From the NCBI GenBank assembly GCA_964650945.1, contig CAZYXU010000001.1:32474-96473 (forward strand): a stretch of DNA of 64,000 bases. Reading direction: 5' to 3'. Below are positions 23,683-39,966 of this stretch, piece after piece. The notes under the pieces are model-generated. The model did no database searches. It worked only from the letters and a program-made list of their open reading frames with translations, and was not told the DNA's origin. Each line of letters opens with the position of its first letter. The first letter of the stretch is position 1. The translations under genes were made by a program, and so were the position numbers. Source of the stretch: an uncultured Verrucomicrobiota bacterium (GTDB lineage: Bacteria > Verrucomicrobiota > Kiritimatiellia > JAAZAB01).

Positions 23683-24165
23683 ACAATTTCTCCTTGCATG
23701 GTTTCGCCCGTGCCGGTTTACCGACGGAATCGTTCGGCGACCGACGGGAGATTACTTTCGAGTAAATAATAAGCTTTAGGCGAGCAATATGCAAGACTGT
23801 AATCCCCGTCCAGGGTCACCCCGTTCAAAAGATAATATTCTTGCGTGATTCAGGTTTATGCGACATATTGCCGGCACGGCACAGCCATTAAAGGTTGAAT
23901 ACAAAGGTGCGATTTACCACGCCACGGCGTGGATGCCGGGATATGCGCCGGCGCCGGGAACCGCCGGCGACTCAAGATACGCTTGGGTGGACGGGCTGTA
24001 TCAAAAGCGAGTGGCGGAAGACCGGCAGCCGGAAGATGCAAGTATTTGGAGTATCAGGAATGCTTTGGATGAATCGACAATGTCGGGCAGAATCTCCCCA
24101 TGTGGATCGCTGATCTCGATATCGAATCCATCAGGAGGGATGCGGGCATCAAGTCGGATTAGAAA

Positions 24166-24975: not shown

Positions 24976-25096
24976 GAAGGAATGTACTGCTTCGGTTCTT
25001 CACAACCATGCGACGACGACGGTGACGCCCGCGCCCGCCGCGAGGGCCGCCAGAACAAGCTTCACTGTGCCTGCGTCCATGACGATGCCGCCTTGT

Positions 25097-25759
25097 TTAC
25101 GCCACCAGTCCCGCCTCCTGAAAACTGTAATACCCTTTCCGGGTAACAATGATCTGATCCAGGACGCGGATGCCTAGAATCTTTGCCGCCTGGGTCAGTT
25201 GCTCGTGTATCTTCAGGTCGGCGTCGCTGGGTTTGAGTTCGCCGGATGGGTGGTTGTGGGCGAAGATGACGGCGGCGGCCCGGTCGGCGATTACGTCGGC
25301 AAAGACCTCTCGCGGGTGAACCTGGCTCCGGTCCAGTAGGCCGATGGTGACGGTGCGCTTCTCGATGACTTCGTTTGCGCCGTTCAGGGAAATGCAGAGG
25401 AAGTGCTCCTGTTGCTTCCCGGCAATGTCGGCCAGTAGTGGAAGGGCATCGGCGGACGTCGCAATCTTGACCGTGTCCCTTAACAGGTGCCGCCGGGCGA
25501 GTTCAAAAGCGGCAAGGACTTGGTATGCCTTGGCGGGGCCCATGCCGTGAATGGCGGTCAGGTCCGCCTCGGTAAGCCCCGTTTTCTTCACTTGAATGAT
25601 CTTGGCGATCTCCTTCGACATAGCCCGTACATCGTGGCCCTGAACGCCGCGGCCAAGGATGACCTGAACGAGTTCCTCATCCGTCAAGGCAGACGCGCCC
25701 CTGGCCGCCATCTTTTCACGGGGTCGATCCTGTTCAGGCATGTCCTTGATGGTCTTCAC
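25097..25759 (-). CDS. radC: RadC-family JAB/MPN domain protein (UPF0758)
   Basis: C-terminal HNHPSGELKPSDADLKIHEQL (JAMM motif) and N-terminal HhH region; 4-nt overlap with hsdM upstream. Confidence 0.85.
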   Translation of the reverse strand: MKTIKDMPEQDRPREKMAARGASALTDEELVQVILGRGVQGHDVRAMSKEIAKIIQVKKTGLTEADLTAIHGMGPAKAYQVLAAFELARRHLLRDTVKIATSADALPLLADIAGKQQEHFLCISLNGANEVIEKRTVTIGLLDRSQVHPREVFADVIADRAAAVIFAHNHPSGELKPSDADLKIHEQLTQAAKILGIRVLDQIIVTRKGYYSFQEAGLVA

Positions 25760-27339: not shown

Positions 27340-27359
27340 TTCAGAGTTTCCGCCAGCAC

Positions 27360-27527
27360 TCAGGCTTCCGTGGCGCCGTATTCCGCCGGTTTCTCAGCCA
27401 CAACCAAACGCTTTCGGCTGGCACAGCGCTTCTCGAACTGCTCGCGCGCCTCCCGCAGTTCCTTCGTCATCAATTCCGGGTGTCCATAGTATCGCTTGGA
27501 CAATTCCGTTCGGATGTCGCGCATCAT
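27360..27527 (-). CDS. Small basic hypothetical protein (55 aa from MMRDIR; the ORF extends to 27584 and overlaps the PIN gene's 3' end)
   Basis: Open frame 27360..27584, placed between the PIN gene and hsdM. No family recognised; start choice uncertain (27527 or 27554). Confidence 0.35.
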   Translation of the reverse strand: MMRDIRTELSKRYYGHPELMTKELREAREQFEKRCASRKRLVVAEKPAEYGATEA

Positions 27528-27537
27528 CCTGACGCAG

Positions 27538-28005
27538 TCAAATGTCTTTTTCATTGAGCACCTCCCTGGGTGTGCGAATATCAATCAAACCGTAACCTTC
27601 CTTCAAGTTTACGGAATTGTATAGTCGGATGCGGTTTAGATTCACGATGTGCTTGAAGTTCCAACTTACCAGAACATCCACTCGTGCCACCGTCGCGGCG
27701 GCGATGTGCAGTCCATCCGCCACGGTTGCCGGCGTCACAATGCCATCGCGGAGATAGGCATCGGCCAAGGCCAGCGATTCATTTGTCTCGGGCAATATCT
27801 CTCGGCGCTCCACGGGCATATCCTCCACAATCTCCCGCACTCGTCCCGGCGCTTGCCGTAGTTCCCGGATCGTCAGTTCCGACAGCACCATCTTCTTGCG
27901 CCCATGCCGAAACTCCCCCATCAGGCGTACCGACCATTCCTTGAACTCATCCTCAAAGCAACCTCCGATCACTGACGTGTCAACGTAGATTCGCATCTTG
28001 TCCAT
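27538..28005 (-). CDS. PIN-domain protein (VapC-like putative toxin/ribonuclease)
   Basis: MDKMRIYVDTSVIGG (first conserved Asp), E at about 40, VADGLHIAAA (third acidic), SWNFKHI and a C-terminal acidic residue: the PIN fold signature. Starts 15 nt after the HTH gene stop. Confidence 0.75.
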   Translation of the reverse strand: MDKMRIYVDTSVIGGCFEDEFKEWSVRLMGEFRHGRKKMVLSELTIRELRQAPGRVREIVEDMPVERREILPETNESLALADAYLRDGIVTPATVADGLHIAAATVARVDVLVSWNFKHIVNLNRIRLYNSVNLKEGYGLIDIRTPREVLNEKDI

Positions 28006-28020
28006 CCATATTGCTGAAGG

Positions 28021-28425
28021 TCACACGGCCAACGCCTTTGCGCGCCGGTCTAGATCGGGCGAGTGGAGTTTCCGCACTTCCTCGATGAATTCGTCCAGTT
28101 CCTTCTCGGTCAATTCCGCGCCGCGGACCGTCCGGAAGAAGACCGGCAGTTTCGCGAGCAACTTCTCGTCGCTCATGATCTCCCGTGGAATCTGGCCTCG
28201 GGCGATATCCGCCTGATCCATGAAGTCCTGCCACTCGGATGACTCCGGCTTCAGGCCGAGCGCCTTGGCCCATTTCGCCAAGGTCTTCGTGTCCTTGGGC
28301 GGCGGATTGACGTTCCGCTCGATCTTGCTCCAGTTGCTCGGATCAACCTCGTTCTCGGCACAGAATTGCCGTAGCGTCCTCCCCTGCGCGATCCGCTTGT
28401 CTTTAACGAGTTCGCCGAATGTCAT
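28021..28425 (-). CDS. XRE-family helix-turn-helix protein (putative antitoxin/regulator), 134 aa
   Basis: AGGAGG RBS 8 nt upstream of the ATG; ELVKDKRIAQGRTLRQFCAENEVDPSNWSKIERN is a classic HTH_3 motif, with a 70-aa C-terminal domain. Confidence 0.75.
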   Translation of the reverse strand: MTFGELVKDKRIAQGRTLRQFCAENEVDPSNWSKIERNVNPPPKDTKTLAKWAKALGLKPESSEWQDFMDQADIARGQIPREIMSDEKLLAKLPVFFRTVRGAELTEKELDEFIEEVRKLHSPDLDRRAKALAV

Positions 28426-28497
28426 GGTAAGGTCCTCCTGTTGCTTCATCCGTGGTGTAGAATAAACCACATGTGGTAGGAATGCAACCACAAAATA

Positions 28498-29718
28498 CTA
28501 CCCGAAATCGAACGCCTCGCGCAGGATCGCTCCGGGCAGGGCGGAAACAGCATCTCGTTCGTTGGCCGAAGCCGCTCTGATCCTGCTTATGGCCTTCCGT
28601 TGCCTTTCGACGTCTTTCACAATGTTTTCCTGGTCGTCAATAGTGGGCGGTATGGGTACCGGGTAGTCACGCATGAAATCCGCAGGCACCCGCTGTTGCC
28701 CCGCGCTGCCATCGAATTTCGCCTCTGCAGCATCGCGGAATTCGCGAGTTCGCACCAGAAACAAGAGCCATTCTCGCCGAATCCCGGGCTTGGCCCTCAA
28801 GACGTGGAATTCGGTTGTGCCAAAACCGAAGCCTTTGGTCAAACCCGTTGCGATCGCCGACTTTCCGTTCTGCATACATGGCGTTATTTTCGCAAACAAC
28901 ACGTCGCCCTCTTCGAAATAGGTGTAGCCCTTCGCGACTGACGAGAGAGGTTTCGTAATTCTCGTTGCGATCTGCCCCAGAGTCTCGTCTATGGCGTCCA
29001 TTGGCACAAAACTGACCATGGCATCTGCCTTTTCTGCGCCAAGCGCCTTGCGACGCGGATTGATGTCGGCCATCTTACCCAATGGTACTCTCATCCATCC
29101 ACTAGGCAAACGATCTCCTCGTCCCGTGTGCAGGGCGTTGCGAAGAAACGCGCATTCGAGCGTTGCCGCTGCGTCTATCTGTCTCTCCGACGCCCGCCGC
29201 ATGGACTCGACCTTGCTTAACTTCCGCTCCAGTTCGGCAGCGAGACTGTCTCTCGCTGCTTCCTCACGTGGGACAGGAACGCAAAGGCGTTTCAGTTTCC
29301 GAATGTCGGCTCTGGGCATCCGGCCGCCCGTTGAATACTTCACCGCGCAGTCTATGACCTGCTTCGACTGGAGAGCGGCTGCAAGAAAGGCGCGGGACAC
29401 CCCGGCGGCTGGTCTCAATGTGAGGATTTCCATACAGCATTTTCCAGGTATATCCGGCAGGAATACCTTGTCGAGATAGGGGCGCAGTTTTCCGTATAGG
29501 ACGTGAGTATGGTCGAAACGGAAGCATGTGCTCTCCGCCTTGGCGGGAGACTCCGAAATGAACCGGCGCGTATGCGATTCGATATTTTCCAGACCTACAA
29601 ACGGCAATCCGGCGAAGTCGGGGTCACCCGCTTGGACTTGGTTTCGCTCTTCCTCGAAGAGATTTCCCAGTTCCATCCATTGCCAGTCTGGGGGTAGTTG
29701 TCTGGCTGTTGAGGTCAT
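28498..29718 (-). CDS. hsdS: Type I restriction-modification system, specificity subunit (two TRDs)
   Basis: 406 aa with two target-recognition domains separated by a conserved central helix (LAAELERKLSKVE...) and C-terminal helix repeats. ATGA overlap with the hsdR stop. Confidence 0.85.
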   Translation of the reverse strand: MTSTARQLPPDWQWMELGNLFEEERNQVQAGDPDFAGLPFVGLENIESHTRRFISESPAKAESTCFRFDHTHVLYGKLRPYLDKVFLPDIPGKCCMEILTLRPAAGVSRAFLAAALQSKQVIDCAVKYSTGGRMPRADIRKLKRLCVPVPREEAARDSLAAELERKLSKVESMRRASERQIDAAATLECAFLRNALHTGRGDRLPSGWMRVPLGKMADINPRRKALGAEKADAMVSFVPMDAIDETLGQIATRITKPLSSVAKGYTYFEEGDVLFAKITPCMQNGKSAIATGLTKGFGFGTTEFHVLRAKPGIRREWLLFLVRTREFRDAAEAKFDGSAGQQRVPADFMRDYPVPIPPTIDDQENIVKDVERQRKAISRIRAASANERDAVSALPGAILREAFDFG

Positions 29719-32111
29719 GCCAGCAGCCTCGCCTTGGTTTCCTGAATCACGGCCTGCGGCGTGAGCGGGAGGCGCAGGAGCGCGTCGAAGCCGCCTTGCT
29801 GAACGACCTCGTCCACGTCGAACAGATGATGGGTTTCCAGTTCCTCAATGCCGCCCTTCTCGAATTGGCGGGCAATCGCCATGACCACGCCGGCGGAGCG
29901 GTCCGGGAATTGCCGCAGCCAGGTCTTGTTCTTATACCCGAAGGCGGCGACGCGCTCCGGGCGCGAGCGGGCGGGTATGCCGTAGCCGAGATTGACCAAC
30001 ACGTCGAAAAGATCGCACTCCTGCTCTTCCTCGATTTCCCGAATGAGCCGGATCGCGCCTTCGCCGCCCGGTAGGGCGGTGATTAACTCCCGGCGGCGGG
30101 CCGGTTGAATCCAGATGGTGCGCAGGGCGTCCGCCGTGGGCGCGGTCTCGGTGAGTTGCGCGGCAAGGCGCTGTTTGTAGGTCTCCAGCGGAACCAGGAC
30201 TTCCTTCCCGTCCTCCTCGCATAGGATGGAATGGCCGGCGCCGTCAATCTGGACCGTGAATTGATCCTGCCCTACGCGAATGATCTTTCGCTTGGGCGTG
30301 TCGGATTTGCCGTAGCCGGGCGTCGGGGATTCGACGCCTTCGGCCGGTTCGTCGGTCGGGGAAGACGGTTTGGCGCGGCTGACGAAGGGTTGCCCGAAAA
30401 GGCGGGCGGCGTTGGTGTAGTCGTAAACGCGGAAGAGCAGTTTCGAGCCGCGCGGTTCGCCGGTGCGCGTGCCGCGGCCCACCATCTGGTAGAACATGAT
30501 CGGCGATTCGATGTATCGGAAGAAGACCACGTTGGCGCAGTTGGGTATATCCACGCCGTAGCCCAGCAGATCGACCGTGGCGGCGATGAAATGGGAGTTC
30601 TTCGATCCCCGGAATTCGGGGATCAGTTTGTCGGCGGATGGCCGCAAGTCCGGGTTGCCCGTGCATTGGAAGGCAAACCACTCCTTCGGCGTGCGCCCGT
30701 TGTCCCGGCACCATTGCTCGTACAGGTTGTTCAACTTGATCATCACGCGGTTGGCGTGGCTGTCGCGGGCGCAGAACAGGATGGTTTTCTGGTGAGGCCC
30801 GCCGGAATCGAGCAGGAGCTTAAACAGGTCTTCGCACATGGCGTTCACACGGTCGTCCAGCATCAGAATGCTGTCGTAGTCCGTAGCGGTATACTTGTCT
30901 TCGATATCGCCGGGATTGACCGGCTTACCGGTGAAGGGGTCCACGGCGGACCGCGTCTCAATGTCTTTTCGCGTGATCTCCTTCTTGTCCAGATCAACGG
31001 TCCGGCGGATGATCTCGCACGCGGCGAGATAGCCGTCATCCTGGCCGGTGGTCATGGCGTACTCGTAGACCGGTTCGCCGAAATAGTTGACGTTGTGTGC
31101 GGTGATGGTCTCGTCCGTCATCCGGGCCGGCTGCCCCTTTTTGCCCCCGACTACCTTCCGGGGCGTGGCGGTCAGGCCGATATGCACGGCATCCGGGTTG
31201 TCCTTCAGAATCACGCTCCACTTGCTCCACGCCGACCGGTGGCACTCGTCAATGACGATGTGACTAAAGAAACCGGGCGGGTAGTTCTGTTTCCAGAATA
31301 AGGGTTCGCTGTCCTCCGCCGTGACATTGAGCGTCTGATAGGTCGCCACGAGCACCTTGGCATTGCGGGCCGGATCCTCGCTGGTGACGATCTTCGCATT
31401 ATCGCCGAAGATCGCGTGCAACTTGCCCATGCCCTGGGTGCGGAGTTCATCGCGGTCGCAGACGAACAACGCGCGTTTCAGCATGCCAGCCTGGGCCAGT
31501 TTCCAGAGCAATTGAGCGGCTAGGACCGTCTTGCCCGTGCCGGTAGCCAGGGACAGAAGCGCCCGATTTCCGCCGCCGGCCAGCTTCTCCAACGTCGCGC
31601 GGATTGCCGCATCCTGGAAGTACCAGCGGGCCGCCTCGCCGCCCTTGTACGGCATGAAAAGCGCCTTGGCCGCGTCGGTATCGAGGGTGATTCCCCGCAA
31701 CGCCTCGTAACGCGCCTTGAGTTGTGCGGGAGTCGGGAACTCAGACAGCGGCCGGTTCTCGATAATCTGACCGGTATCCTCGCCGTATTCGGTGAAAAGG
31801 TGGCCGTTCGTGGCAAACACAAACGGCACATTGTACTTCCGCATGTAGTCCTTCGCTTGTTGGATGCCGAGGGACGGCAGTTTGTCCTCGGCTTTGGCCT
31901 CCATCAGGGCGATTGACAACGGCGACTTGCCGGCATGGATCGGCAGGCACAGAAGGTAATCTGACCGCCCCTTCCGCTTGCGGGGCTTCCCGTCCACGAT
32001 ATCCGCACCGCCTGGAGTCTTCTCTTCCCGGACAAGATCGTCCGTCCATCCGATCCCGTCCAGAACCGGATCGATCAACTCCACCCTGGTCAGATGTTCA
32101 TTCCGTGGCAT
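29715..32111 (-). CDS. hsdR: Type I restriction enzyme, R (endonuclease/helicase) subunit, short EcoEI-like form
   Basis: HSDR_N-type N-terminus (LIDPVLDGIGW...SIALMEAKAED PD-(D/E)xK), Walker A SLATGTGKT, DEAH box VIDECHRS, helicase motifs, and an EcoEI_R_C-like C-terminus; 798 aa. Confidence 0.85.
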   Translation of the reverse strand: MPRNEHLTRVELIDPVLDGIGWTDDLVREEKTPGGADIVDGKPRKRKGRSDYLLCLPIHAGKSPLSIALMEAKAEDKLPSLGIQQAKDYMRKYNVPFVFATNGHLFTEYGEDTGQIIENRPLSEFPTPAQLKARYEALRGITLDTDAAKALFMPYKGGEAARWYFQDAAIRATLEKLAGGGNRALLSLATGTGKTVLAAQLLWKLAQAGMLKRALFVCDRDELRTQGMGKLHAIFGDNAKIVTSEDPARNAKVLVATYQTLNVTAEDSEPLFWKQNYPPGFFSHIVIDECHRSAWSKWSVILKDNPDAVHIGLTATPRKVVGGKKGQPARMTDETITAHNVNYFGEPVYEYAMTTGQDDGYLAACEIIRRTVDLDKKEITRKDIETRSAVDPFTGKPVNPGDIEDKYTATDYDSILMLDDRVNAMCEDLFKLLLDSGGPHQKTILFCARDSHANRVMIKLNNLYEQWCRDNGRTPKEWFAFQCTGNPDLRPSADKLIPEFRGSKNSHFIAATVDLLGYGVDIPNCANVVFFRYIESPIMFYQMVGRGTRTGEPRGSKLLFRVYDYTNAARLFGQPFVSRAKPSSPTDEPAEGVESPTPGYGKSDTPKRKIIRVGQDQFTVQIDGAGHSILCEEDGKEVLVPLETYKQRLAAQLTETAPTADALRTIWIQPARRRELITALPGGEGAIRLIREIEEEQECDLFDVLVNLGYGIPARSRPERVAAFGYKNKTWLRQFPDRSAGVVMAIARQFEKGGIEELETHHLFDVDEVVQQGGFDALLRLPLTPQAVIQETKARLLA

Positions 32112-32255
32112 TCAAGAGGCTCCAAATATGCCATTTTCATAACACGAAACCTTCCAGAAAGAAAGATATATTTCGTATGTGGACGGGTTGATCTTATGTT
32201 GGCCCGGAAGTATAAGATTGATTGCATCGGTTAAAATTGGTATGGTGCCAATGTT

Positions 32256-32474
32256 ATGGCAAGTACACTCCAGATTGAGAGCATGTCACGCGCGGAAAAA
32301 CTCCAGGCAATGGAGGCCATTTGGTCCGATTTATCCAAAGATGAAGCCAACGTGGAGTCTCCTCCATGGCACGCTGACGTTCTCAGGGAAACCAATGCCA
32401 GGGTTGCCGCAGGTCAGGAGCGCATAGCAGACTGGGAAACGGCCAAGCTGGAACTCCGGAAACGGTTTGAATGA
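32256..32474 (+). CDS. Addiction-module antitoxin (putative addiction module component family, 72 aa)
   Basis: MSRAEKLQAMEAIWSDLSKDE...PPWHADVL...AAGQERIADWE pattern of the TIGR02574-type antitoxins that partner RelE/ParE toxins. Confidence 0.75.
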   Translation: MASTLQIESMSRAEKLQAMEAIWSDLSKDEANVESPPWHADVLRETNARVAAGQERIADWETAKLELRKRFE

Positions 32475-32611
32475 GGATCAAAATCCTGTCTTCAGCCATG
32501 GAAGACTTACACGCCGGGCGCCTGTTTTACGAGATGCAGGCGGAGGGAGTAGGCGCGTACTTTTTTGATTCCCTGTTTTCCAACATTGACTCCCCCGTTG
32601 ATCCAGAATAG
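32471..32611 (+). pseudogene. Truncated RelE/ParE-family toxin remnant (46 codons; about half length)
   Basis: ATGA overlap with the antitoxin stop. MRIKILSSAMEDLHAGRLFYEMQAEGVGAYFFDSLFSNIDS resembles ParE N-termini, but the frame stops after 46 aa, directly followed by the RBS and start of gap. Confidence 0.45.
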
Positions 32612-32625
32612 TTAAGGAGGCAAGC

Positions 32626-33630
32626 ATGAGTAAAATAGCCATTCACGGATTCGGTCGTATCGGGCGCTCCACACTGAAGGCGGCCCTCAAGCGGAACCTC
32701 TTTGTGCCTGTCGCCATTTCCGACATCAAGGACTTGCCGACACTGGCCGCGCTGTTCGAGGCGGACTCCAATTACGGCCGCTGGAGCGAAGCCGTTACCA
32801 CGAAGGACGGACACCTCGGGATCGCATCGCGCTCGGTGCAGTACATCGACGCAACCAAGTCGTTGCCGGACTGGGGCGCCTTGGGCGTCGAGCTGGTGAT
32901 TGACTGTACCGGACGGGCAACGACCCGGGCCGGCGCCCAGGCTCATCTCGACCGCGGGGCCAAGCGCGTCCTGATCAGCGCGGCAAGCAAGACGCAGCAG
33001 GATGCAGACGCCGTCCTGCTGCCCGGGATCAATCTGGACCAGTTCGATCCGCTGCGGCACCGCATTGTGAGCATGGCGAGTTGCACGACCAACGCCCTGG
33101 CGCCCGTGATCAAGGTGCTGCTGGACAATTTCGGGATCAAGTGCGGTTTCTTCTCGACCGTGCATGCCTACACGAACACCCAGGCGCTCACGGACCAACC
33201 CATGCGCGACCGCCGCGATTCATGGGCCGCCGCCGAGAACATCATCCCCTCGTCTTCGGGCGCAGCGCGGGCCCTGCAGTTCATCTGGCCGGGGTTGACC
33301 ATCACGGGGAAATCGTACCGCGTGCCGGTGCGCACCGTGAGCATCGCCGAGGTGAATGCGGTAACCGCACGGGCCGCCGGCGCGGAAGAAGTCAAGGCGC
33401 TGTTCCGGGAGGCGGCCGCAAGCGGCCCGATGAAGGGTATCGTGGATGTGCTGGAGCAGGAATGGGCGTCTTCCCGGATTATTGGCGACGAGCACTCATC
33501 CATCATTGACCTGCCCCTGGTGCAAGTACTCGGCGGCACACTGGTATCAGTGGCGGCCTGGTATGACAACGAGATGGGATACGCCACTCGACTGGCCGAG
33601 GCGGCAGCCTGCTTGACCGCCGGCCGATGA
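32626..33630 (+). CDS. gap: Glyceraldehyde-3-phosphate dehydrogenase family protein
   Basis: AIHGFGRIGR NAD-binding start and ASCTTNALAP catalytic Cys motif; 334 aa. AAGGAGG RBS. Confidence 0.85.
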   Translation: MSKIAIHGFGRIGRSTLKAALKRNLFVPVAISDIKDLPTLAALFEADSNYGRWSEAVTTKDGHLGIASRSVQYIDATKSLPDWGALGVELVIDCTGRATTRAGAQAHLDRGAKRVLISAASKTQQDADAVLLPGINLDQFDPLRHRIVSMASCTTNALAPVIKVLLDNFGIKCGFFSTVHAYTNTQALTDQPMRDRRDSWAAAENIIPSSSGAARALQFIWPGLTITGKSYRVPVRTVSIAEVNAVTARAAGAEEVKALFREAAASGPMKGIVDVLEQEWASSRIIGDEHSSIIDLPLVQVLGGTLVSVAAWYDNEMGYATRLAEAAACLTAGR

Positions 33631-33689
33631 CACTGCCGCCTTGCTCAACAACTGCCTGGATATTTCCGGAACGCTGGCGAGGCAGTCAC

Positions 33690-33717
33690 CGGAATTTGAA
33701 CGGGATTTACAGGATTA
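33690..33717. repeat. 28-nt direct repeat copy 1 (CGGAATTTGAACGGGATTTACAGGATTA)
   Basis: Matches 33866-33893 at 24/28 positions; located just after the gap stop at the left edge of an about 40% GC islet. Confidence 0.5.
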
Positions 33718-33865
33718 CCTATTCGCTCTGAAAGAAAGATTTGATTTCAGCGGTCTTTTATGAATATTATGTACTAGGTGAAAATATGCGTGCGAGGGGT
33801 CGCTGCAAGGGGGCGGTCCCATAAAATGATGATCATGGCATGAAGGTGGTGGGCAGGTCAGGCAT

Positions 33866-33893
33866 CGGAATTATGACAGGATTTACAGGATTA
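33866..33893. repeat. 28-nt direct repeat copy 2 (CGGAATTATGACAGGATTTACAGGATTA), ends 5 nt before the PIN gene start codon
   Basis: See copy 1; 176 nt apart. Confidence 0.5.
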
Positions 33894-33897
33894 AAAA

Positions 33898-34329
33898 ATG
33901 TTGATTTATCTGGATACATGCTGTTTTAACCGTCCGTATGATGACCAGATGCAGATAAATGTCAGGCTGGAGACGGAAGCCAAGTTGTCCATTCAGGAAC
34001 ATGTGAAGCGAGGTAACCTGGATTTAGCTTGGTCGTTCATTTTGGATTATGAAATTGCCCAAAATCCCTTTCCGGAACGCCGGCTTGCAATCCATGATTG
34101 GCGTGGTTATGCGTGCAGGGATGTTGCGCAATCGGCCAAAATTGTTCATCAGGCAAAAATACTGTCTGAACAGTTGATTCAAACATTTGATGCGTTGCAT
34201 GTCGCTTGCGCGATGCAAGCTGGTTGTCAATATTTCATAACTGCCGACAAACGCTTGATTCAAAGATTGAAACATAATAAGGTAATCCATGTTGTTAATC
34301 CCGTCAGATTTGTCATGGAGGTGCTATAA
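33898..34329 (+). CDS. PIN-domain protein (VapC-like), AT-rich gene
   Basis: MLIYLDTCCF (N-terminal Asp), E about 26-30, FDALHVACA and ITADKRL segments fit a PIN fold. Gene GC is about 40%. Confidence 0.6.
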   Translation: MLIYLDTCCFNRPYDDQMQINVRLETEAKLSIQEHVKRGNLDLAWSFILDYEIAQNPFPERRLAIHDWRGYACRDVAQSAKIVHQAKILSEQLIQTFDALHVACAMQAGCQYFITADKRLIQRLKHNKVIHVVNPVRFVMEVL

Positions 34330-34577
34330 TGATCAGCGATACGCAAATACGTATTAAGGGCATGCAGGCGCTTACGGGCACTTTGGGTGATATCCAGGCG
34401 GAAAGGTTTATTACGCTTATGATTCGCGAACCATTTGATTACACCGAATGGCGACGTGATTTGTGGCAAGGTAAAAGCGTGGAAGAAATAAGCAATGAAG
34501 CCATGCGATACCGACGCACACACCGTTTGCGTAAAATCGGGTCCGCCAGGAAGACCGCAACTAAACGCAATAAATAA
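34329..34577 (+). CDS. Hypothetical 82-aa protein downstream of and overlapping (ATGA) the PIN gene; possible cognate antitoxin
   Basis: Start codon overlaps the PIN stop; basic C-terminus (RRTHRLRKIGSARKTATKRNK). No family recognised. Confidence 0.4.
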   Translation: MISDTQIRIKGMQALTGTLGDIQAERFITLMIREPFDYTEWRRDLWQGKSVEEISNEAMRYRRTHRLRKIGSARKTATKRNK

Positions 34578-34580
34578 CTC

Positions 34581-34640
34581 ATGCTCGCAAAAATCCATAG
34601 CGGCGCGGTGTACGGTGTTGACGCATCCCTCCTTCGCTGA
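34581..34640 (+). pseudogene. Duplicated, divergent 5' fragment of comM ([16 protein letters not shown] then stop)
   Basis: 19-codon frame whose first 16 residues match the N-terminus of the intact comM 100 nt downstream ([16 protein letters not shown]) with mostly synonymous nucleotide differences. Confidence 0.45.
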
Positions 34641-34681
34641 AGCTACGGAGGGCGAGACGCGGTGTTTTGAGCAGAATCATT

Positions 34682-36217
34682 ATGCTTGCCAATGTTCATA
34701 GTGGCGCCGTTTATGGCGTCGATGCTTATGCCGTGGAGATTGAGGTTAACTCCGGCCATGGCGATCCGCAGACGGTGATCGTGGGGCTGCCCGACGCCGC
34801 CGTGAAGGAATCGAAGGACCGGGTCCACACCGCCATCATCAATTCCGGATTCGAGATGCCGAAGGGGCGGCTGACGGTCAACCTGGCGCCGGCGGATGTG
34901 AAGAAGGAAGGGCCGAGTTTCGACTTGCCGATTGCCCTGGGCGTGCTGGCGACGGAGGGCGAGGTACCGGCCGGCGTCCTGGAGCAATTTGCCCTGGTGG
35001 GCGAATTGGCTTTAAGCGGGGAAGTCCGCCGGGTGCGCGGCATCTTGCCGATCACCCTGGCCATGCGGGATGCCGGGCGGCGGGCGATCATCGTGCCGCA
35101 GGACAATGCCGAGGAGGCGGCGGTGGTGGATGGGATTGACGTGTATCCCGTCAACTCCCTGCGCCAGGCGGTGGAACTGCTGGCCGGGCGCGGTCTTGAT
35201 AAGCCGTGCAAGGTTGACATTGAAAAGGCGTTCGAATCGCACCTGGCGTACGAGGAGGATTTTTCGGACATCAAGGGGCAGGAGCAGGCCAAGCGCGCGG
35301 TGGAAGTGGCGGTGGCCGGCGGCCACAACATTTTATTCATCGGGCCGCCGGGCACGGGTAAAACCATGCTGGCCCGGCGCATTCCCTCGATTCTGCCGCT
35401 GTTGACCCTGCCGGAGGCGCTGGAGGCGACCAAGATCCACAGCGTGGCCGGCGCCCTGCCTCCGCACCAGGCGCTCCTGACGCGCCGGCCGTTCCGCACC
35501 CCGCACCACACGGTTTCCGATGCCGGGCTGTTGGGCGGCGGCGCGCATCCGGCGCCGGGCGAGGTCAGCCTGGCGCATGGCGGCGTGCTTTTCCTGGACG
35601 AGTTGCCGGAATTCCACCGCAACGTGCTGGAAGTGTTGCGCCAGCCGCTGGAGGATGGGATGGTGACGATCGCGCGGGCGGCGGCCAGTGTGGCCTTCCC
35701 CTGCCGGTTCATGCTGGTGGCGGCGATGAATCCCTGCCCCTGCGGCTATCTCAACGACCGCCGGCATGAGTGCCGCTGTACGCCGCTGCAAATCCAGCGT
35801 TACCGCAACAAGATTTCGGGTCCGTTGCTGGACCGGATTGACATCCATATCGAAGTGCCGTCGGTGCGCTACCAGGACCTGGCGGCGCCGCCGGCCGGCG
35901 AAAAGTCCTTCGCGGTCCGCCAGCGGGTGATGGCGGCGCGCGCGCGGCAGCAGGCGCGGTTTGCGCCGGCGCGCAAGACGCATTGCAATGCGGAAATGCG
36001 CGCCCGCGACATCCATAAGCATTGCGCGCTCGACGCCGCCTCCCAGCAATTGCTCAAAACCGCGATCACGGAATTGAATTTCAGCGCCCGGGCCTACGAC
36101 CGCATCCTCAAGGTCGCGCGCACCATCGCCGACCTGGAAGGCGCGGAAAACATCCAGTCGCAGCATGTCTCCGAGGCGATTCAGTACCGGACACTCGACC
36201 GGCAGTTCTGGGTTTAA
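34682..36217 (+). CDS. comM: YifB/ComM family Mg-chelatase-like AAA+ ATPase
   Basis: N-terminal Lon-protease-like domain, Walker A GPPGTGKT, Walker [10 protein letters not shown]4 zinc motif [15 protein letters not shown] and a C-terminal helical domain; 511 aa from MLANVHSG. Confidence 0.85.
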
Positions 36218-36257
36218 CCGGGCCGGGCCGGAAGCGGAATGGACAGGAATATAAAAT

Positions 36258-37439
36258 ATGAGTAAGCAATCGCAAGGTTTGCATCCCGGAATACACGCGG
36301 CGCTTCAAAAGGAAGCCGCCGACCTCAAGCAACTGGCTTTGGACATCCATGCCCGTCCGGAAACCGGCGGCCGGGAAGCCTACGCCTGCCGCCGGCAAGT
36401 GACGTTGCTGCGCCGCTGGGGATTTCGCGTGACGACCCCCTTCGCCAAACTGCCGACCGCCTACCGCGCCAGTTATGGACAGGGCCGGCCGGTATTCTGC
36501 CTGATGGCGGAATATGACGCCTTGGAGGGGCTGGGCCATGGCTGCGGCCATAATCTGATCGCCGCCGCCGCGCTGGGCGCCGGACGGGCGCTCGGCTTGG
36601 CCTTGCGCGCCGGCCGCATCCCCGGCACGCTGCTGGTCATTGGCACGCCGGCCGAGGAAACGACGGGCGGCAAGGTGCAGATGATTGCCGCCGGCGCGCT
36701 GCACGGCGTGGATGCGGCGTTGATGGCGCATCCCCAATGGCGGACCACGCCGGATGGCGGCGGCACGGCGCTGGCGCGTTACCGGATCAAATTTCACGGC
36801 AAGGCGGCGCATGCGGCGGCCCAGCCGGAATTGGGACGCAACGCCCTGGACGCCGTGATGCTGTTGTTCCAGGGCGTCAATGCCTGGCGTCAACAACTGC
36901 CGGAAACCAGCCGCGTGCATGGCATTGTCACCGACGGCGGGGCGGCGCCCAATATCATCCCCGATTTGGCCGCCGCTTACTTTTTCCTGCGTTCTACCGA
37001 CGATGCCTTCCTGCGAACCATGCGGCGGACATTTATCGATATTGCCCGGGGCGCCGCGCTGATGACCGGCACGCGCCTGGAAGTCGGGGAAACGGACACC
37101 CCCTACCGCGCGCGCCGGCTGAACCGGCCGCTGAATGACGCCTACCTGGAATATGCCGCGGCGCTGGGCCTTAATCCCGTGATTCCCAAGGTGCCCGGCC
37201 GCGGGTCCACGGATTTTGGCGATGTTTCCCGGGCGATTCCCGGCGCCCATGTTTACTTCGGGATTGCGCGCCGGAAAATCCCCGCCCATTCGGTGGCCAT
37301 GCGGGATGCCGCCAAAAGCGCTTTCGGCCTGGAACGGATGCTGCGCGCCGCCGAGGCCCTCGCCAATATCGGGTATCGTTTTTTTTCCGAGCCGGAATTC
37401 CGCAAAAATGTAGCGCGCGATTTCAAGCATCCGGAGTGA
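36258..37439 (+). CDS. M20 family metallopeptidase / amidohydrolase (AbgB/HipO-like)
   Basis: GHGCGHNL metal-binding motif, GTPAEE and dimerisation domain; 393 aa. Confidence 0.8.
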   Translation: MSKQSQGLHPGIHAALQKEAADLKQLALDIHARPETGGREAYACRRQVTLLRRWGFRVTTPFAKLPTAYRASYGQGRPVFCLMAEYDALEGLGHGCGHNLIAAAALGAGRALGLALRAGRIPGTLLVIGTPAEETTGGKVQMIAAGALHGVDAALMAHPQWRTTPDGGGTALARYRIKFHGKAAHAAAQPELGRNALDAVMLLFQGVNAWRQQLPETSRVHGIVTDGGAAPNIIPDLAAAYFFLRSTDDAFLRTMRRTFIDIARGAALMTGTRLEVGETDTPYRARRLNRPLNDAYLEYAAALGLNPVIPKVPGRGSTDFGDVSRAIPGAHVYFGIARRKIPAHSVAMRDAAKSAFGLERMLRAAEALANIGYRFFSEPEFRKNVARDFKHPE

Positions 37440-37493
37440 CGCGGATGACGAATGGCCGGATCACAGCGGCCGCCACATCTAGAATAGGATTAT

Positions 37494-39296
37494 ATGCGCC
37501 ATCAGAAACGTTCGGTCGGAATCTTTGCCGGTTTCCATCTTTGCCGCGCCTGGTTCGGCGCGCCGCTCTTAACGTTGCTGCTGGCGTCGGCCTGCGCCAT
37601 GCCCGGCGCGCTCCCGGCCGCGGATGCGGTGATGAAATTGAAAGTTGTCAACCAGAGCGGTTTTCCGGACGACCAGGTGTATTTCATAATGGTTTGCCAG
37701 GCTCCGCTCGGTTATTTCGATTTCCGCCAGCATGTCCTGGTGGCGACGCCTGTTTTCACGCTGGATGTCAATACCATGGCGGCCTCCCTGGCGCAAATCA
37801 GGCAATACAGCGGCGACGGCACGGCCACGATTTCCTGCCCGGCCATGGGCAGCACCCGGATTTATTTTGCCCTGGGCAAAAATTTCGATCAAATGGGCGG
37901 GTTCCCCGCGTCCGGACCGGAAAAGGGGTGGGGCAACCTGGTGCCTTGGGCGATGTTCGAGTTCGATCTATCCAACCATGGGTTTGTGAACCAGAGCAAT
38001 GTGGATTTCTTCAGCCTGGCTTACACCCTGGCCGCGACCCGGAGTTCCGGCGAACACGTGACGGTGGGCATCACCACGCCATCCTCCACCATTTTCAGCG
38101 CGTTCGAGGCGATCCCGCTGCCGGCGGACAGCGGGCAGCAATCCGGCAACGCGCAAATTTTCAAATCGCTGATCGTCAAGGATGCCGCCGGCGCGGTGGT
38201 GCGGGTGATTGCCCCGAAAGCCGCCGCCCTGGGAGATGTCGGCACCCCGGCCGCGCTGCCCCAGATGTTCACGCATTTTCTGCGCGATTATATCAACAAT
38301 CATTGCTGGAAACCTAACCGCACCTTTTCCTTTTCCAGCAAAATTGCGGGAGACTCAAACACCTATTACGGCCGGGTCAGCGCCGATGGCCAGACTCTTT
38401 CGATTTATACCGATGCGGCGATGACCGTCCCGTATGCGCCGGTGCCGACCCTGCCCCGCCCGAGCAATGCCTGGGGGCATCCCGCTTTCAACGCCAACCC
38501 CGGTTTATGGCATAATGTCGGCGCCGCCGGCACGGCGCCGGACGCGATTGACTGGGGCTACCTGCTCTACGGGCAGGACGGCTATGTGTCCGGGCCGGGG
38601 GCGCACTGGCACCTTGATCCGGTGGCGATGGCCATCCCGGTTTCCATCACCCGCGGCGTCATGCATTATGACAACGGCACGACGGCTTGGAAAGACAGCA
38701 CAAAATATTACAAAGGTCTGAACGGGGTGAGCGCGCCGGATCGTCCGATTTTTTATTACGGTGAAATCCTGCACCGGTTCGGCCTGGCCGGCCATGTTTA
38801 CGCGCTCTCCTTCGATGATGTTTACGGCCATGATTCCGGCATCAGTTTCACCGACCCGAACGTCACGCTGACGCTCCATCCGTTCAGCGCGCCGCCGGCG
38901 CTCGGGCCGTGTATCCGGGCCAACGGCCGGCGCGGCACGGTGGGGGTGGCTTATCCGGACAAGGTGGCGCTGACGGTGTCCATGCAGGCCGGGCAGTATG
39001 CCGGCGTCCCGGTGGATTGGTGGGTGCTGGCCATCCCGAGTTACGGGAGCGAGTGGTATTGCCTGCATTCGAACCTGCAATGGGCCGGGTTCCCCGCCGG
39101 CGACCTGGCCCGGTGCCATCCGGTTTACAGCGGCGCCCTGGGTAATATTGAGACACCCCTGACGGTGCTCCCTTCCACCGCCTTGCCGCGCGGGACGTAC
39201 CACGTCTATTTTGCCGTGGATTATCCCATGGACGGCGTCTTGCATTATCCGGCCGGGTCCATGCTTTCCGACATGGTGACGGTGGTTGTGCAGTAA
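37494..39296 (+). CDS. Secreted protein of unknown function. The N-terminal ~450 aa are possibly beta-1,3-glucanase (GH64/thaumatin-like), which is tentative. The C-terminal ~110 aa are shared with the protein at 17336..19336.
   Basis: Signal peptide MRHQKRSVGIFAGFHLCRAWFGAPLLTLLLASACA. C-terminal VPVDWWVLAIPSYGSEWYCL...GTYHVYFAVDYPMDGVL matches IPVDWWVAAYAHDAGLWYYL...GTYSFWFAVDYPMDGVL of the other protein. Confidence 0.6.
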   Translation: MRHQKRSVGIFAGFHLCRAWFGAPLLTLLLASACAMPGALPAADAVMKLKVVNQSGFPDDQVYFIMVCQAPLGYFDFRQHVLVATPVFTLDVNTMAASLAQIRQYSGDGTATISCPAMGSTRIYFALGKNFDQMGGFPASGPEKGWGNLVPWAMFEFDLSNHGFVNQSNVDFFSLAYTLAATRSSGEHVTVGITTPSSTIFSAFEAIPLPADSGQQSGNAQIFKSLIVKDAAGAVVRVIAPKAAALGDVGTPAALPQMFTHFLRDYINNHCWKPNRTFSFSSKIAGDSNTYYGRVSADGQTLSIYTDAAMTVPYAPVPTLPRPSNAWGHPAFNANPGLWHNVGAAGTAPDAIDWGYLLYGQDGYVSGPGAHWHLDPVAMAIPVSITRGVMHYDNGTTAWKDSTKYYKGLNGVSAPDRPIFYYGEILHRFGLAGHVYALSFDDVYGHDSGISFTDPNVTLTLHPFSAPPALGPCIRANGRRGTVGVAYPDKVALTVSMQAGQYAGVPVDWWVLAIPSYGSEWYCLHSNLQWAGFPAGDLARCHPVYSGALGNIETPLTVLPSTALPRGTYHVYFAVDYPMDGVLHYPAGSMLSDMVTVVVQ

Positions 39297-39306
39297 GCGC
39301 GAGGGG

Positions 39307-39966
39307 TTATTGGAACTGTTTGGTGAAGTCGCTGAATTGCGCTTTTAAACGCTCCAATTCATCGGTCATGACCGCGACACGGGCTTCCAAGGCGGCCAGG
39401 CGTTCATTTTCGGCCATGACGGCGATGCGGGCCGGCTCCAGGGGCGTTGGCGGCGCCTGGTGCTCTTCCGGAATGTCGCCGCAGAGCCTGTGCCCATAGC
39501 GTTCCTCCCGCTGCCCGGGCTGGCGGGGGAGTTTGGCGACCAGGCGGGCGCCTGCCGGGGCGGCCAGTTCGTTCAGCTCGGCTTCCACGGCGGCCGTCCC
39601 GTCAAACGGCGCCATGCGCGCGGCGCGGGTGCGCAGTTCCCCGATCGTCTGCGGCCCGCGGAGGAGCAATTCGCAGAGCAGGGCCAATTGCCGCGGGGTC
39701 AGCGCGAGCACGTCCGGGATGCTATGCCGGTATTTGAGCACGCGGCTGTTGGCGAGCGCGACGGATGCCGCCAGTTTTTTTTCACGGAGGCTGTCCAAGG
39801 CCCGGACGACTTCCTTTTCGTCGGTTTGGATGACGGGGTTGCGGTTGGATTTTTGATTGCAGGCAGCGGTCAGCGCCGCGAGCGTCAGCGGATAATATTC
39901 CGGCGTAGTGGCGGCCTTTTCAACCAGGCATCCCAGCACGCGCGCTTCCAGTTGGCTCAAGATCAT
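39307..39966 (-). CDS. YceH-like protein (DUF480 / UPF0502)
   Basis: MILSQLEARVLGCLVEKAATTPEYYPLTLAALTAACNQKSNRNPV is the conserved YceH N-terminus; winged-helix repeats and a coiled-coil C-terminus. Confidence 0.75.
   Translation of the reverse strand: MILSQLEARVLGCLVEKAATTPEYYPLTLAALTAACNQKSNRNPVIQTDEKEVVRALDSLREKKLAASVALANSRVLKYRHSIPDVLALTPRQLALLCELLLRGPQTIGELRTRAARMAPFDGTAAVEAELNELAAPAGARLVAKLPRQPGQREERYGHRLCGDIPEEHQAPPTPLEPARIAVMAENERLAALEARVAVMTDELERLKAQFSDFTKQFQ

Follow-up and report, generated by a model that had tools for sequence, protein, structure and literature searches.

A displaced start of comM and its substitute behind a PIN cassette in an uncultured Kiritimatiellia bacterium

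The window analysed here, a 64,000-nt stretch of DNA from an uncultured Verrucomicrobiota bacterium of the Kiritimatiellia, carries the first codons of comM twice, once as a short fragment behind an AT-rich islet and once as the start of the intact gene, which raises the question of what displaced the one and supplied the other. The helicase encoded by comM integrates transforming DNA, and in Acinetobacter and other bacteria the gene is inactivated by the insertion of elements, which is thought to protect these elements from curing by transformation; in several phyla, mobile DNA has repeatedly targeted comM (PMC11441513; for yifB, PMC7192596). The initial annotation of the locus had read it as the footprint of an integration into comM, with the islet as what is left of the integrated element.

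The two starts and the DNA around them

The intact gene (34682..36217, plus strand) encodes, by Pfam and its protein relatives, a YifB-family Mg-chelatase-like AAA+ helicase of 511 aa in which the ComM domains ChlI, Mg_chelatase and Mg_chelatase_C are all present. Its product is 94% identical to P0001 and 87% identical to P0002, both from Kiritimatiellia MAGs, and an exact look-up of the window ComM returned no record. Codons 1–16 of the working gene (34682..34729, plus strand) are preceded, at a distance of 101 nt from ATG to ATG, by a second set of comM codons 1–16 at 34581..34628 on the same strand. As described initially from the reading frames, this fragment runs into a stop upstream of the intact gene: the ORF comprises the ATG at 34581, the 16 comM codons, LLR and a TGA at 34638–34640 (19 codons in all), with the homology to comM stopping at about 34626 and the reading frame continuing to the TGA. 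With a nucleotide profile from 138 comM starts, nhmmer recovered the fragment at E = 2e-9 in 1.36 Mb, so that it is no chance match. The nucleotide profile search gave no further comM-like copies in the 64-kb window and, in agreement with the initial annotation, none at the left edge of the islet.

The two copies of codons 1–16 (34581–34628 and 34682–34729) are identical at 33 of 48 nt. Third codon positions, whose dominance had already been remarked upon, hold 13 of the 15 differences (binomial P = 3e-5), and ten of the differing codons are synonymous and three non-synonymous. The GC3 is 0.625 in the fragment, 0.38 in codons 1–16 of the working gene and 0.84 in the remaining comM, and the higher GC3 earlier ascribed to the fragment therefore holds. 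At the junction, the longest identical blocks common to both copies are of 5–7 nt, GCCTAY(C).

Between the copies lies a spacer of 53–55 nt (34627..34681, plus strand), the current comM leader, which contains an imperfect palindrome (inverted repeat I24) with arms at 34627–34638 and 34641–34652. Two of the metagenome contigs discussed below also have this spacer behind their fragments, L157 twice and L090 in diverged form; in the window it is absent upstream of the first comM-start copy. The 53-nt spacer with its palindrome and the low-GC3 allele of codons 1–16 together make up a 101-nt unit without cargo. The spacer folds no more stably than shuffled sequences, and neither a near-threshold Rfam match nor a terminator pattern was found in it. 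A genome-wide REP-type repeat was considered and rejected, the spacer having a single occurrence in the 64 kb; the motif GGTCCYATAAAATGA also occurs once. When compared with the IS200/IS605 and REP/RAYT types, the 101-nt unit has an imperfect palindrome at its left end, with a fold that is not significant and one occurrence in the window, and Y1_Tnp genes or remnants lie nearby in the window (23878–24078), in L083 (3895–4980) and in L157 (127–575). A short palindrome, GGCGTnGAYGCC, is also present inside comM, at nt 34–45.

An ORF of 19 codons with a palindrome downstream might be a functional leader peptide or uORF that regulates comM, and indeed the ORF is intact with its ATG, and the window fragment and fragment f1 of L157 differ only synonymously (five of five differing codons). 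However, the closest relatives (L083, L084 and L085) do not have the ORF, the fragments in L090 and L095 have non-synonymous changes and ends in different frames, and the fold, Rfam and terminator results for the spacer also argue against such a role. We consider this explanation scarcely credible, together with the minor one of a metagenome mis-assembly, against which stand the same junction in three independent assemblies and the sharing of at most 6 nt with either parental context. The two independently assembled datasets that contain the same structure are 100% identical to the window over 2556 nt (L001) and 99.8% identical (L002).

The low-GC islet with a PIN gene that had been noted upstream was recovered with a GC content of 0.42–0.46 over 33700–34600, compared with 0.61–0.69 in the flanks. 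On its left side, copy 1 of a 42-nt direct repeat (33676..33717, plus strand; repeat family D1) is the last stretch of the left flank that is conserved with L083, window 33591–33716 being 81% identical to L083 6426–6550 and the L083 homology stopping there. Copy 2 (33852..33893, plus strand), which is 79% identical to copy 1, stands directly 5' of the PIN gene as the left end or 5' UTR of the PIN cassette. In L166 a shorter form of this repeat lies 5' of a PIN homologue, the left neighbour being an MNT gene and not the gene gap. The PIN-like gene itself (33898..34329, plus strand; 143 aa; GC about 0.44), a putative toxin and the cargo of the cassette, has a marginal match to PF01850 (24.5 bits against a cut-off of 23.6, E = 4.6e-5, residues 80–121). 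Its stop is overlapped by 1 nt by an 82-aa partner gene (34329..34577, plus strand) that belongs to no Pfam family and has its stop 3 nt before the ATG of the fragment. The 82-aa gene has 54 homologues, mostly of 67–72 aa, in several phyla, and L084, L166 and L167 contain PIN homologues paired with this partner gene. The 82-aa versions that are at least 88% identical and have downstream DNA (L084 and L167) sit directly before comM, and the L166 contig ends at the stop of the gene. For the PIN/82-aa pair, which was compared with type II toxin–antitoxin modules of the PIN/VapC-like kind, PADLOC gave no hits.

Allelic origin of the two starts

In L084, the same 82-aa gene is followed by the same 3-nt junction and then by an intact comM, with no second copy. 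Window 34225–34624, from the 3' end of the PIN gene through the 82-aa gene to nt 44 of the fragment, is 91% identical to L084 1–400, whereas the comM bodies are 81% identical. This arrangement indicates that the fragment travels with the islet as the right end of the islet. L083, L084 and L085 have one comM start each and represent empty sites, for which the initial annotation had predicted a single 5' end.

In comparison with the comM starts of L083 and L084, the fragment is identical at 41 and 42 of 48 nt, respectively, and it is assigned to an 'A-type' allele by this match and by its contiguity with the cassette as in L084. The working start is identical to that of L085 at 44 of 48 nt and to those of L083 and L084 at 35–37 of 48 nt, and is assigned to a 'B-type' allele by its match to L085. 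At the sites where L083 and L084 agree and differ from L085, the window gene matches B by 5:0 before nt 49 and A by 17:4 after it (Fisher p = 0.0019), with the switch from B to A falling between nt 48 and 51 of comM. Because each copy matches the gene of a different relative and the divergence is nearly all synonymous, each copy evolved inside a functional comM and was then imported, and was not duplicated in place. The 48-nt stretch at 34581..34628 is a former working start of comM, expelled from the gene, and the current working 5' end is a substitute.

The comM start might also have been duplicated in tandem purely locally, with later divergence in place, and other contigs offer parallels: in L124, 66 nt of the comM start region are perfectly repeated in tandem, the comM-start copies in L109 are identical, and unequal exchange between copies best accounts for the extra unit in L157. 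For the window this explanation is disfavoured and its chance is very small, as the concentration of the differences at third positions (13 of 15, P = 3e-5), the match of each copy to a different functional gene and the lack of the inter-copy spacer upstream of the first copy all argue against it, and a decaying copy would not preserve the protein sequence. Neither the old local duplication nor the conserved leader peptide, which the initial annotation had named as its own alternatives, is what the relatives show.

Relative to L084, the window has 101 nt inserted after comM nt 46–49, the last 48 nt of the insertion being a synonymous variant of the preceding 48 nt. In the window, comM nt 49–87 are unusually diverged too, so that the event may have swapped about 40 nt and not been a clean insertion, and the imported tract may reach codon 29 (about 34768). 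The DNA that parts the fragment from the gene body is the 53-nt spacer with the new 16 codons, possibly to codon 29, and not the islet. In L157, from a near-identical strain, the same layout of fragment, spacer and gene lies behind wholly different toxin–antitoxin cargo, and the layout therefore does not depend on the PIN islet. The middle copy in L157 is a hybrid, of the gene type over nt 1–38 and of the fragment type over nt 39–46, which demonstrates exchange between copies within GGCGT.

It is consequently quite improbable that the AT-rich islet represents what is left of an integrative element which entered the 5' end of comM, supplied the substitute start and subsequently shed its integrase and the greater part of its body. 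In favour of such an element are the foreign composition of the islet, the foreign allele at the working start and the documented targeting of comM by mobile elements (PMC11441513, PMC7192596). However, the islet is situated left of the fragment and not between the copies, has no comM-like copy at its left edge, and is seen on an intact comM without a second copy in L084, whereas L157 has the same layout with a different islet. Of the footprint originally proposed, the displaced 5' end, the two different functional alleles with divergence of the synonymous kind, the substitute working start and the hotspot of recombination or integration are retained, and the PIN islet as the displacing element is given up in view of L084 and L157.

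Among 80 comM loci from species-representative genomes no duplicated comM start was found; at 69% identity or less, these loci are equally similar to both window copies and the comparison is uninformative about their origin. An all-pairs comparison of 5' and body identity was too noisy for general module boundaries.

Recurrence of the junction

Extra same-strand comM starts were found upstream of comM in L157 (three copies in all), L090, L095, L162, L109 and L124, which are independent Kiritimatiellia-like metagenome contigs. The break in comM lies at nt 46 in the window and L157, at nt 47–49 in L090, at nt 49 in L095 and at nt 48 in L162, which places three to four independent events no more than 5 nt apart, after codon 16. 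As the scan was sensitive from about six codons and gave no fragments of 6–14 codons except the perfect tandem duplication in L124, with a similar background in the minus-strand control, this cluster is no detection artefact. The insert is flanked by comM-derived direct repeats in L095 (110 nt, 85% identity) and L162 (52 nt, 87% identity), and the differing codons are synonymous in three of four cases in the former and in six of six in the latter.

Other junctions occur at nt 11, 37 and 67 and deeper in comM. One and the same donor end, at the base of the palindrome, abuts comM in the window and L157, in L090 and, at nt 11, in L124 and L143, in both of which palindromes related to that of the spacer precede comM. 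The left ends of the inserts, which follow the junction on its right side, have nothing in common beyond a C, and the synonymous sites near the junction show only a mild drop in variability at codons 12–15, which is not decisive.

The cargo differs by locus and includes MNT/HEPN, DUF4258/YgiT, Abi_alpha and an outer-membrane protein. The region upstream of comM is hypervariable, with 111 Pfam families among 118 ORFs, of which PIN, MNT, HEPN and Phd recur most; in the L094–L103 group the homology begins only about 70 nt before comM. Both comM and dprA are present in the clade. One ComM protein, P0013, is found on 11 contigs at a stable locus between dprA and ruvA with no cassettes, and the hotspot is thus not universal in the class.

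Candidate agents and known systems

As initially stated, no integrase or recombinase was found in the 64-kb window, here by a motif scan of ORFs of at least 120 aa and by Pfam on 45 window ORFs, and there was no recombinase in the inserts of L090, L095, L109 and L162. Recombinase motif matches in the window and beside comM in L003 and L137 were identified by Pfam as spurious ORFs or AraC regulators. A phage or provirus origin was rejected, as neither the comM-start pattern nor a ComM relative occurs in the viral contig collection, and Tn7-like ends were rejected for the lack of terminal inverted repeats in the L095 and L162 inserts. An AbaR or Tn7-like comM island was likewise rejected, since comM is intact, there are no transposition genes and those two inserts have no terminal inverted repeats, as was an integron, since the window has no tyrosine recombinase, the junctions are without GTTRRRY and the repeats are comM coding sequence. 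Of the features of gene-restoring 5'-end elements, target-derived direct repeats, a restored frame with a foreign N-terminal segment and empty sites in relatives were all found; an integrase next to att was not, and only 53 nt lie between the window copies.

In dusA-specific islands (for example IMEVchUSA3) and in SXT at prfC, insertion takes place in the first codons of the target, a new leader and a diverged N-terminal segment are supplied, and a short fragment remains of the previous 5' end (PMC8409611). The comM locus is like these in that the insertion lies within the first codons of a housekeeping gene that is kept functional by a replacement start. However, elements of the dusA/prfC type are of 20–100 kb, with a tyrosine integrase and a directionality factor beside att, whereas the units here are of 0.1–2.5 kb with no recombinase, several of them are stacked, and the att-like copies are without a long identical core. 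AbaR/Tn6022-type and other comM elements have the same target gene, but these insertions, Tn7-like or integrase-borne, sit within the gene and abolish its function, whereas here comM is intact by virtue of the substitute start. Phage 21 and e14 at icd carry a mostly synonymous copy of the target-gene end and leave a displaced pseudo-end and an intact hybrid gene, but each is a single, integrase-encoding prophage at a 3' end, whereas here it is the 5' end of comM that is concerned. SCCmec and pseudo-SCC at the end of rlmH/orfX form tandem cassettes with direct repeats derived from the gene end, and many of them have no recombinase genes and are served in trans; the known recombinase CcrAB, the near-identical repeats of about 15–18 bp and the 3' gene end of SCCmec have no demonstrated counterpart at the comM locus. 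Sedentary chromosomal integrons are arrays of small promoter-less cassettes, rich in toxin–antitoxin genes, at one site, with the enzyme encoded outside the cassettes, whereas the comM locus has no IntI gene, no attI and no attC with RYYYAAC/GTTRRRY boxes, and its repeat is the protein-coding sequence of comM.

We lean towards the view that comM codon 16/17 is a preferred recombination point and that cassettes, each with its own comM start, stack upstream of it. The locus itself consists of two stacked units, both of which close with a separate copy of comM codons 1–16: unit 1 is the PIN/82-aa cassette with the A-type codons, and unit 2 the cargo-less 101 nt with the palindrome-containing leader and the B-type codons. 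Of these copies, the last one alone continues into the comM body, and ComM therefore stays intact. The preferred point in the clade would be the junction after codon 16, between GAYGCCTAY and a following C, at which cassettes, mostly of toxin–antitoxin or defence genes and without a recombinase of their own, may enter or swap. Each cassette would bring a leader and replacement codons 1–16, like 5'-end-targeting integrative elements, most likely with catalysis in trans by a candidate site-specific recombinase encoded elsewhere in the genome, and unequal exchange between copies may give rise to tandem 101-nt units, as in L157.

Several observations fit poorly with this view. At 101 nt, the cargo-less unit is too short for recombination as a free circle; the gene-proximal unit is common to the window and L157 and their older cargo differs, which does not suit a simple order of the newest unit next to the gene; and the lack of a recombinase among the sequences searched, the lack of a shared core longer than 5–7 nt, the unlike left ends of the inserts, the merely mild drop in synonymous variability near the junction, the other junctions and the divergence of nt 49–87 point the same way. 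A serious rival, possible although on the unlikely side, is homology-facilitated illegitimate recombination or hairpin-stimulated template switching with DNA from a related strain, for example after natural transformation, with neither a recombinase nor a mobile element. Homology-facilitated illegitimate recombination uses a homology anchor on one side and a microhomology joint on the other, and leaves a partial duplicate of the recipient. At this locus one end would be joined by homology inside comM and the other at microhomology just after GGCGTnGAYGCC, the fragment being the recipient comM to the left of the illegitimate joint. This would explain why no recombinase was found, and why the PIN cassette is like the resident flanks at either end (with the 42-nt repeat on its left side and codons 1–16 on its right), as is expected of the homologous locus of another strain. 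It is also consistent with the imported appearance of comM nt 49–87, which fits a homologous joint deeper in the gene, with a possible CC/CCC microhomology between TAYCCN and the spacer start CCCTCC, with the junctions at nt 11, 37 and 67, with the presence of comM and dprA in the clade and with the palindromic element at several other breakpoints. However, three to four independent events lie within 5 nt and fragments of 6–14 codons are lacking, the same donor end at the palindrome base is reused in the window and L157, L090, and L124 and L143, and the B-type allele is common with L085 only to nt 48. To our knowledge, joints of this kind are not expected at the same codon in independent lineages.

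If the preferred recombination point is taken further, codon 16/17 might be the attachment site of an undescribed cassette-capture system, in which integrase-less cassettes, for the most part of toxin–antitoxin and abortive-infection genes, bring a leader each, use synonymous comM codons 1–16 as the recombination site and are moved in trans, and stacked upstream of comM, by a recombinase encoded elsewhere, with comM always intact; we regard this as doubtful. Were it true, the 101-nt cargo-less unit would be a minimal mobile module and the locus an integron-like or SCC-like platform with a protein-coding repeat.

In conclusion, the comM hotspot described here lies in a poorly known uncultured phylum, and comM is kept working in every event by a replacement start. 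Should these events be the work of a dedicated recombinase, they would represent a compact, gene-preserving route to gather and exchange toxin–antitoxin and defence cassettes, as well as a new attachment-site logic, with the coding constraint of the host gene protecting the recombination site. If they arose by illegitimate recombination, the locus would still document cleanly, in a natural setting, how recombination of the transformation type assembles defence islets beside conserved genes. In practice, short displaced gene starts offer a cheap marker for such hotspots in metagenomes.

Two comM starts and their alleles

The first 16 codons of comM are present twice in the window, on the same strand and 101 nt apart. 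The first copy (34581–34628; the fragment) is followed by three more codons and then by TGA at 34638–34640, and the second (34682–34729; the working start) opens the intact ComM of 511 amino acids, which contains the ChlI, Mg_chelatase and Mg_chelatase_C domains (Pfam). The copies are identical at 33 of 48 positions, and third codon positions account for 13 of their 15 differences (P = 3e-5, assuming that all positions are hit equally). The GC content at third positions (GC3) is 0.625 in the fragment, 0.38 in the working start and 0.84 in the remainder of comM. The initial annotation had described a displaced, synonymously diverged comM 5′ end beside an AT-rich islet, with a higher GC3 than that of the functional copy, and this description was confirmed in every detail. 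A nucleotide profile of 138 comM starts matched the fragment at E = 2e-9 (1.36 Mb searched) and detected no further copy in the window. The same two-copy structure is found in two independent public assemblies (100% and 99.8% identity).

The stretch upstream of the fragment has a GC content of 0.42–0.46 and contains a gene of 143 amino acids with a marginal Pfam match to PIN, overlapped by a gene of 82 amino acids belonging to no Pfam family (together, the PIN cassette). In locus L084, the ComM of which is 87% identical, an intact comM comes immediately after the same 82-amino-acid gene, which ends "...AATAAATAAccc". Window 34225–34624, from the 3′ end of the PIN gene through the 82-amino-acid gene to nt 44 of the fragment, is 91% identical to L084 1–400, compared with only 81% for the comM bodies. 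It follows from this arrangement and this difference in identity that the fragment forms the right-hand end of the PIN cassette and was not displaced by it, and that the cassette together with its comM start has been exchanged between lineages. The earlier proposal of an integration hotspot at comM was right in spirit, but the role given to the PIN islet, as the element that had integrated into comM and displaced the fragment, was wrong, since L084 joins the same cassette to an intact gene. Relative to L084, the window contains a 101-nt insertion, consisting of a 53-nt spacer and the second set of codons 1–16.

Judged from their sequences, the two copies represent different comM alleles. The fragment is identical to the comM starts of L083 and L084 (A type) at 41 and 42 of 48 positions, respectively. 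The working start shares only 35–37 of 48 positions with these loci, and is identical at 44 of 48 to the start of L085 (B type; ComM 92% identical, partial), the four differences all being synonymous. At positions where a base shared by L083 and L084 differs in L085, the window gene matches the B type by 5:0 up to nt 48 and the A type by 17:4 from nt 51 (Fisher p = 0.0019). The identity of comM nt 49–87 to L083/L084 is 0.77/0.74, versus 0.92–0.96 in the next 150 nt, and this segment has T-ending codons and another version of a variable loop (NSGHGD); its divergence places the right limit of the imported tract somewhere from 34729 to about 34768. It is very probable that the fragment is the former comM start, belonging to the PIN cassette, and that the working start is another allele, which arrived with the spacer.

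Recurrence, cargo and palindromes

A metagenome scan with ComM residues 1–150 gave 80 more loci, in which the extra comM starts found by protein-level and nucleotide-profile scans were always upstream of comM and on the same strand. L157, from the same or nearly the same strain, has three copies, 102 and 101 nt apart, with the spacer of the window occurring twice, and L090 has a fragment 104 nt before the gene, with a diverged version of this spacer and a longer comM pseudogene further up. The copies are 1.8 kb apart in L095 (repeat −71 to +49), 2.1 kb apart in L162 (repeat −4 to +48) and 2.5 kb apart and identical in L109. L124 has a perfect 66-nt tandem duplication and an 11-nt start remnant before a related palindrome; the duplicated segment (within 907–1094) extends as far as comM nt 37 from the 3′ arm of the palindrome in the leader, and the remnant, which abuts the 5′ base of that palindrome, is also present in L143 (1759–1845).

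The homology to comM stops at nt 46 in the window and L157, at 47–49 in L090, at 49 in L095 and at 48 in L162, always just past GAYGCCTAY; other end-points are at nt 11, 37 and 67, with a few deep in comM. Apart from the L124 duplication, no fragments of 6–14 codons were found by a scan sensitive from about six codons, the minus-strand control of which gave the same background, and the cluster at codon 16 is therefore not a detection artefact. The same architecture with other cargo occurs in several lineages, and the break after codon 16 is recurrent. All of the codons differing between copies in L162 and three of four in L095 are synonymous, as are all five sites that differ between the window fragment and the first fragment of L157; the copies therefore evolved within functional genes. 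The middle copy of L157 is gene-type at nt 1–38 and fragment-type at nt 39–46, which shows that comM-start copies can recombine with each other. Among relatives in the L094–L103 group homology starts only ~70 nt before comM. The locus is entirely invariant in one species, where comM lies between dprA and ruvA, and the hotspot is therefore a feature of part of the class.

The cargo beside or between the copies comprises PIN and the 82-amino-acid gene (window, L084, L166 and L167), MNT and DUF4258 with a YgiT-type zinc-finger protein (L157), a zeta toxin and MNT–HEPN (L090), Abi_alpha/PDC-S47 beside a KAP-type NTPase/PDC-S49, along with two unknown genes (L162), an outer-membrane protein (L095), and an M48 peptidase with a 268-amino-acid ORF lacking a Pfam or PADLOC match (L109). 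Across about 60 loci of the clade, 118 ORFs lying no more than 2 kb before comM matched 111 different families, the few recurrent ones including PIN (5), nucleotidyltransferase (4), HEPN (2) and Phd/YefM (2). No recombinase genes were found in the inserts.

The spacer opens with an imperfect palindrome, CCCTCCTTCGCT-GA-AGCTACGGAGGG, with a single occurrence in the 64-kb window. In L157 and L090 the fragments are followed by the same element, and related ones are present in the L124 and L143 leaders. Similar short palindromes lie within comM in L167 (+172) and, in frame, in L102 and L141 (about +1286), and a cousin, CCCTTCGAC...GCTCAGGGC, lies at −66 in L091, and in L088 both at +1298 and bordering a comM fragment. 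The fold of the spacer is no more stable than that of shuffled sequence, and the spacer matched no Rfam family and no terminator pattern. We treat the palindrome as a small insertion-type element marking breakpoints. In the C-terminal region of comM, two palindrome types occur as in-frame inserts at nearly one position (about +1286 to +1298; L102 5286, L141 1203 and L088 4151); such inserts add 10–30 residues and are also present in the ComM proteins P0005, P0007 and P0020. In the low-coverage contig L167 (304–470), the 82-amino-acid gene is followed by a damaged comM (nt 1–67, a deletion and the palindromic insert); this is either a variant with comM as a pseudogene or an assembly chimera.

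Variable flanks of comM

The window ComM is 94% and 87% identical to Kiritimatiellia MAG proteins and only 69% identical to that of the nearest species-level representative genome. Synteny with L083 (94%) is blockwise, the conserved blocks being comM itself, rlmN–pdxB to its left, and DUF480–glycosyltransferase and tRNA-Gln to its right, with differing DNA between them. Window 24871–33591 (8.7 kb), comprising RadC, a type I restriction-modification system (hsdM/hsdS/hsdR with an HTH gene), a decayed toxin–antitoxin pair and the gene gap, has no counterpart in L083 except for the last 40 nt of gap, which look like a deletion scar. The decayed pair (32256–32611, between hsdR and gap) consists of a 72-amino-acid Unstab_antitox protein (PF09720) and a 46-amino-acid ORF without a Pfam match, probably a truncated toxin partner. 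From 33717 to the comM start the window and L083 are wholly different. A 42-nt direct repeat (79% identity) has its first copy (33676–33717) at the end of the flank conserved with L083 (L083 6514–6550) and its second (33852–33893) in the 5′ UTR of the PIN gene, so that the PIN cassette resembles the resident locus at both ends; L083 also has a similar stretch of 38 nt in front of a methyltransferase gene. The 3 kb directly 3′ of comM (36220–39308) encode an M20 peptidase and a 600-amino-acid protein; L083 has other genes here and L085 lacks this DNA, with DUF480 directly after comM, and the 3′ flank is therefore also variable.

As the initial annotation had noted for integrases, a motif scan and Pfam on 45 ORFs revealed no integrase, transposase or serine recombinase in the window. 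The only transposase traces are two remnants of ~100 nt each, derived from an IS200-like Y1 transposase gene (23878–24078). A long (361-amino-acid) gene of this type is intact in the variable region upstream of comM in L083 (3895–4980), and is frameshifted upstream of the cargo in L157 (127–575).

Proposed recombination at codon 16 and known comM elements

Overall, we lean slightly towards a recombinase-type explanation, in which units of cargo, leader and comM codons 1–16 would be inserted or exchanged by recombination around GCCTAY(C), with the host comM being re-completed every time. The enzyme would act in trans, since the units contain no recombinase; in pseudo-SCC elements and integron cassettes the recombinase is likewise supplied in trans. 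The recombinase mechanism itself is proposed tentatively, at somewhat less than even confidence. Against it stand the lack of a candidate enzyme, of a conserved sequence on the cassette side of the junction and of a long identical core in the copies, as well as no more than mild synonymous-site conservation, the very small size of the unit and a possible replacement of roughly 40 nt past the junction. In addition, the cargo further up differs between the window and L157, although they have the gene-proximal unit in common. The absence of an enzyme would be accounted for by the main rival, homology-facilitated illegitimate recombination or hairpin-stimulated template switching with homologous-locus DNA from other strains, as would the flank-like cassette ends (the 42-nt repeat at 33676–33717 and 33852–33893, and the comM start); however, the clustering of end-points is not easily explained in this way, and we consider this alternative less likely.

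In a more distant clade (L148–L154; ComM about 57% identical), comM is interrupted by small tyrosine-integrase elements at residue 212 (L154, with an integrase next) and at residue 280 (L148 and L153; the L152 contig stops exactly at this point), and 195-amino-acid tyrosine integrase genes lie 2–4 kb upstream of comM beside VapBC-like pairs. Displaced internal comM pieces near an intact comM cover residues 66–222, 202–225 and 347–469 (L160 1–471, L088 189–260 and L102 8005–8406), and two of the three terminate near the Walker A motif.

Tn7-like AbaR islands and other elements target and inactivate comM (PMC11441513), and yifB is among the genes interrupted by integrative elements (PMC7192596). 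The present locus lacks the integrase of the dusA/prfC type and shows none of the features that define integrons or Tn7-like comM islands, and is therefore placed in none of these families. It is distinguished by its stacked recombinase-less, mostly toxin–antitoxin cassettes and by a 101-nt unit without cargo, and, whereas AbaR and the other comM elements inactivate comM, the hotspot at codon 16/17 preserves the gene.
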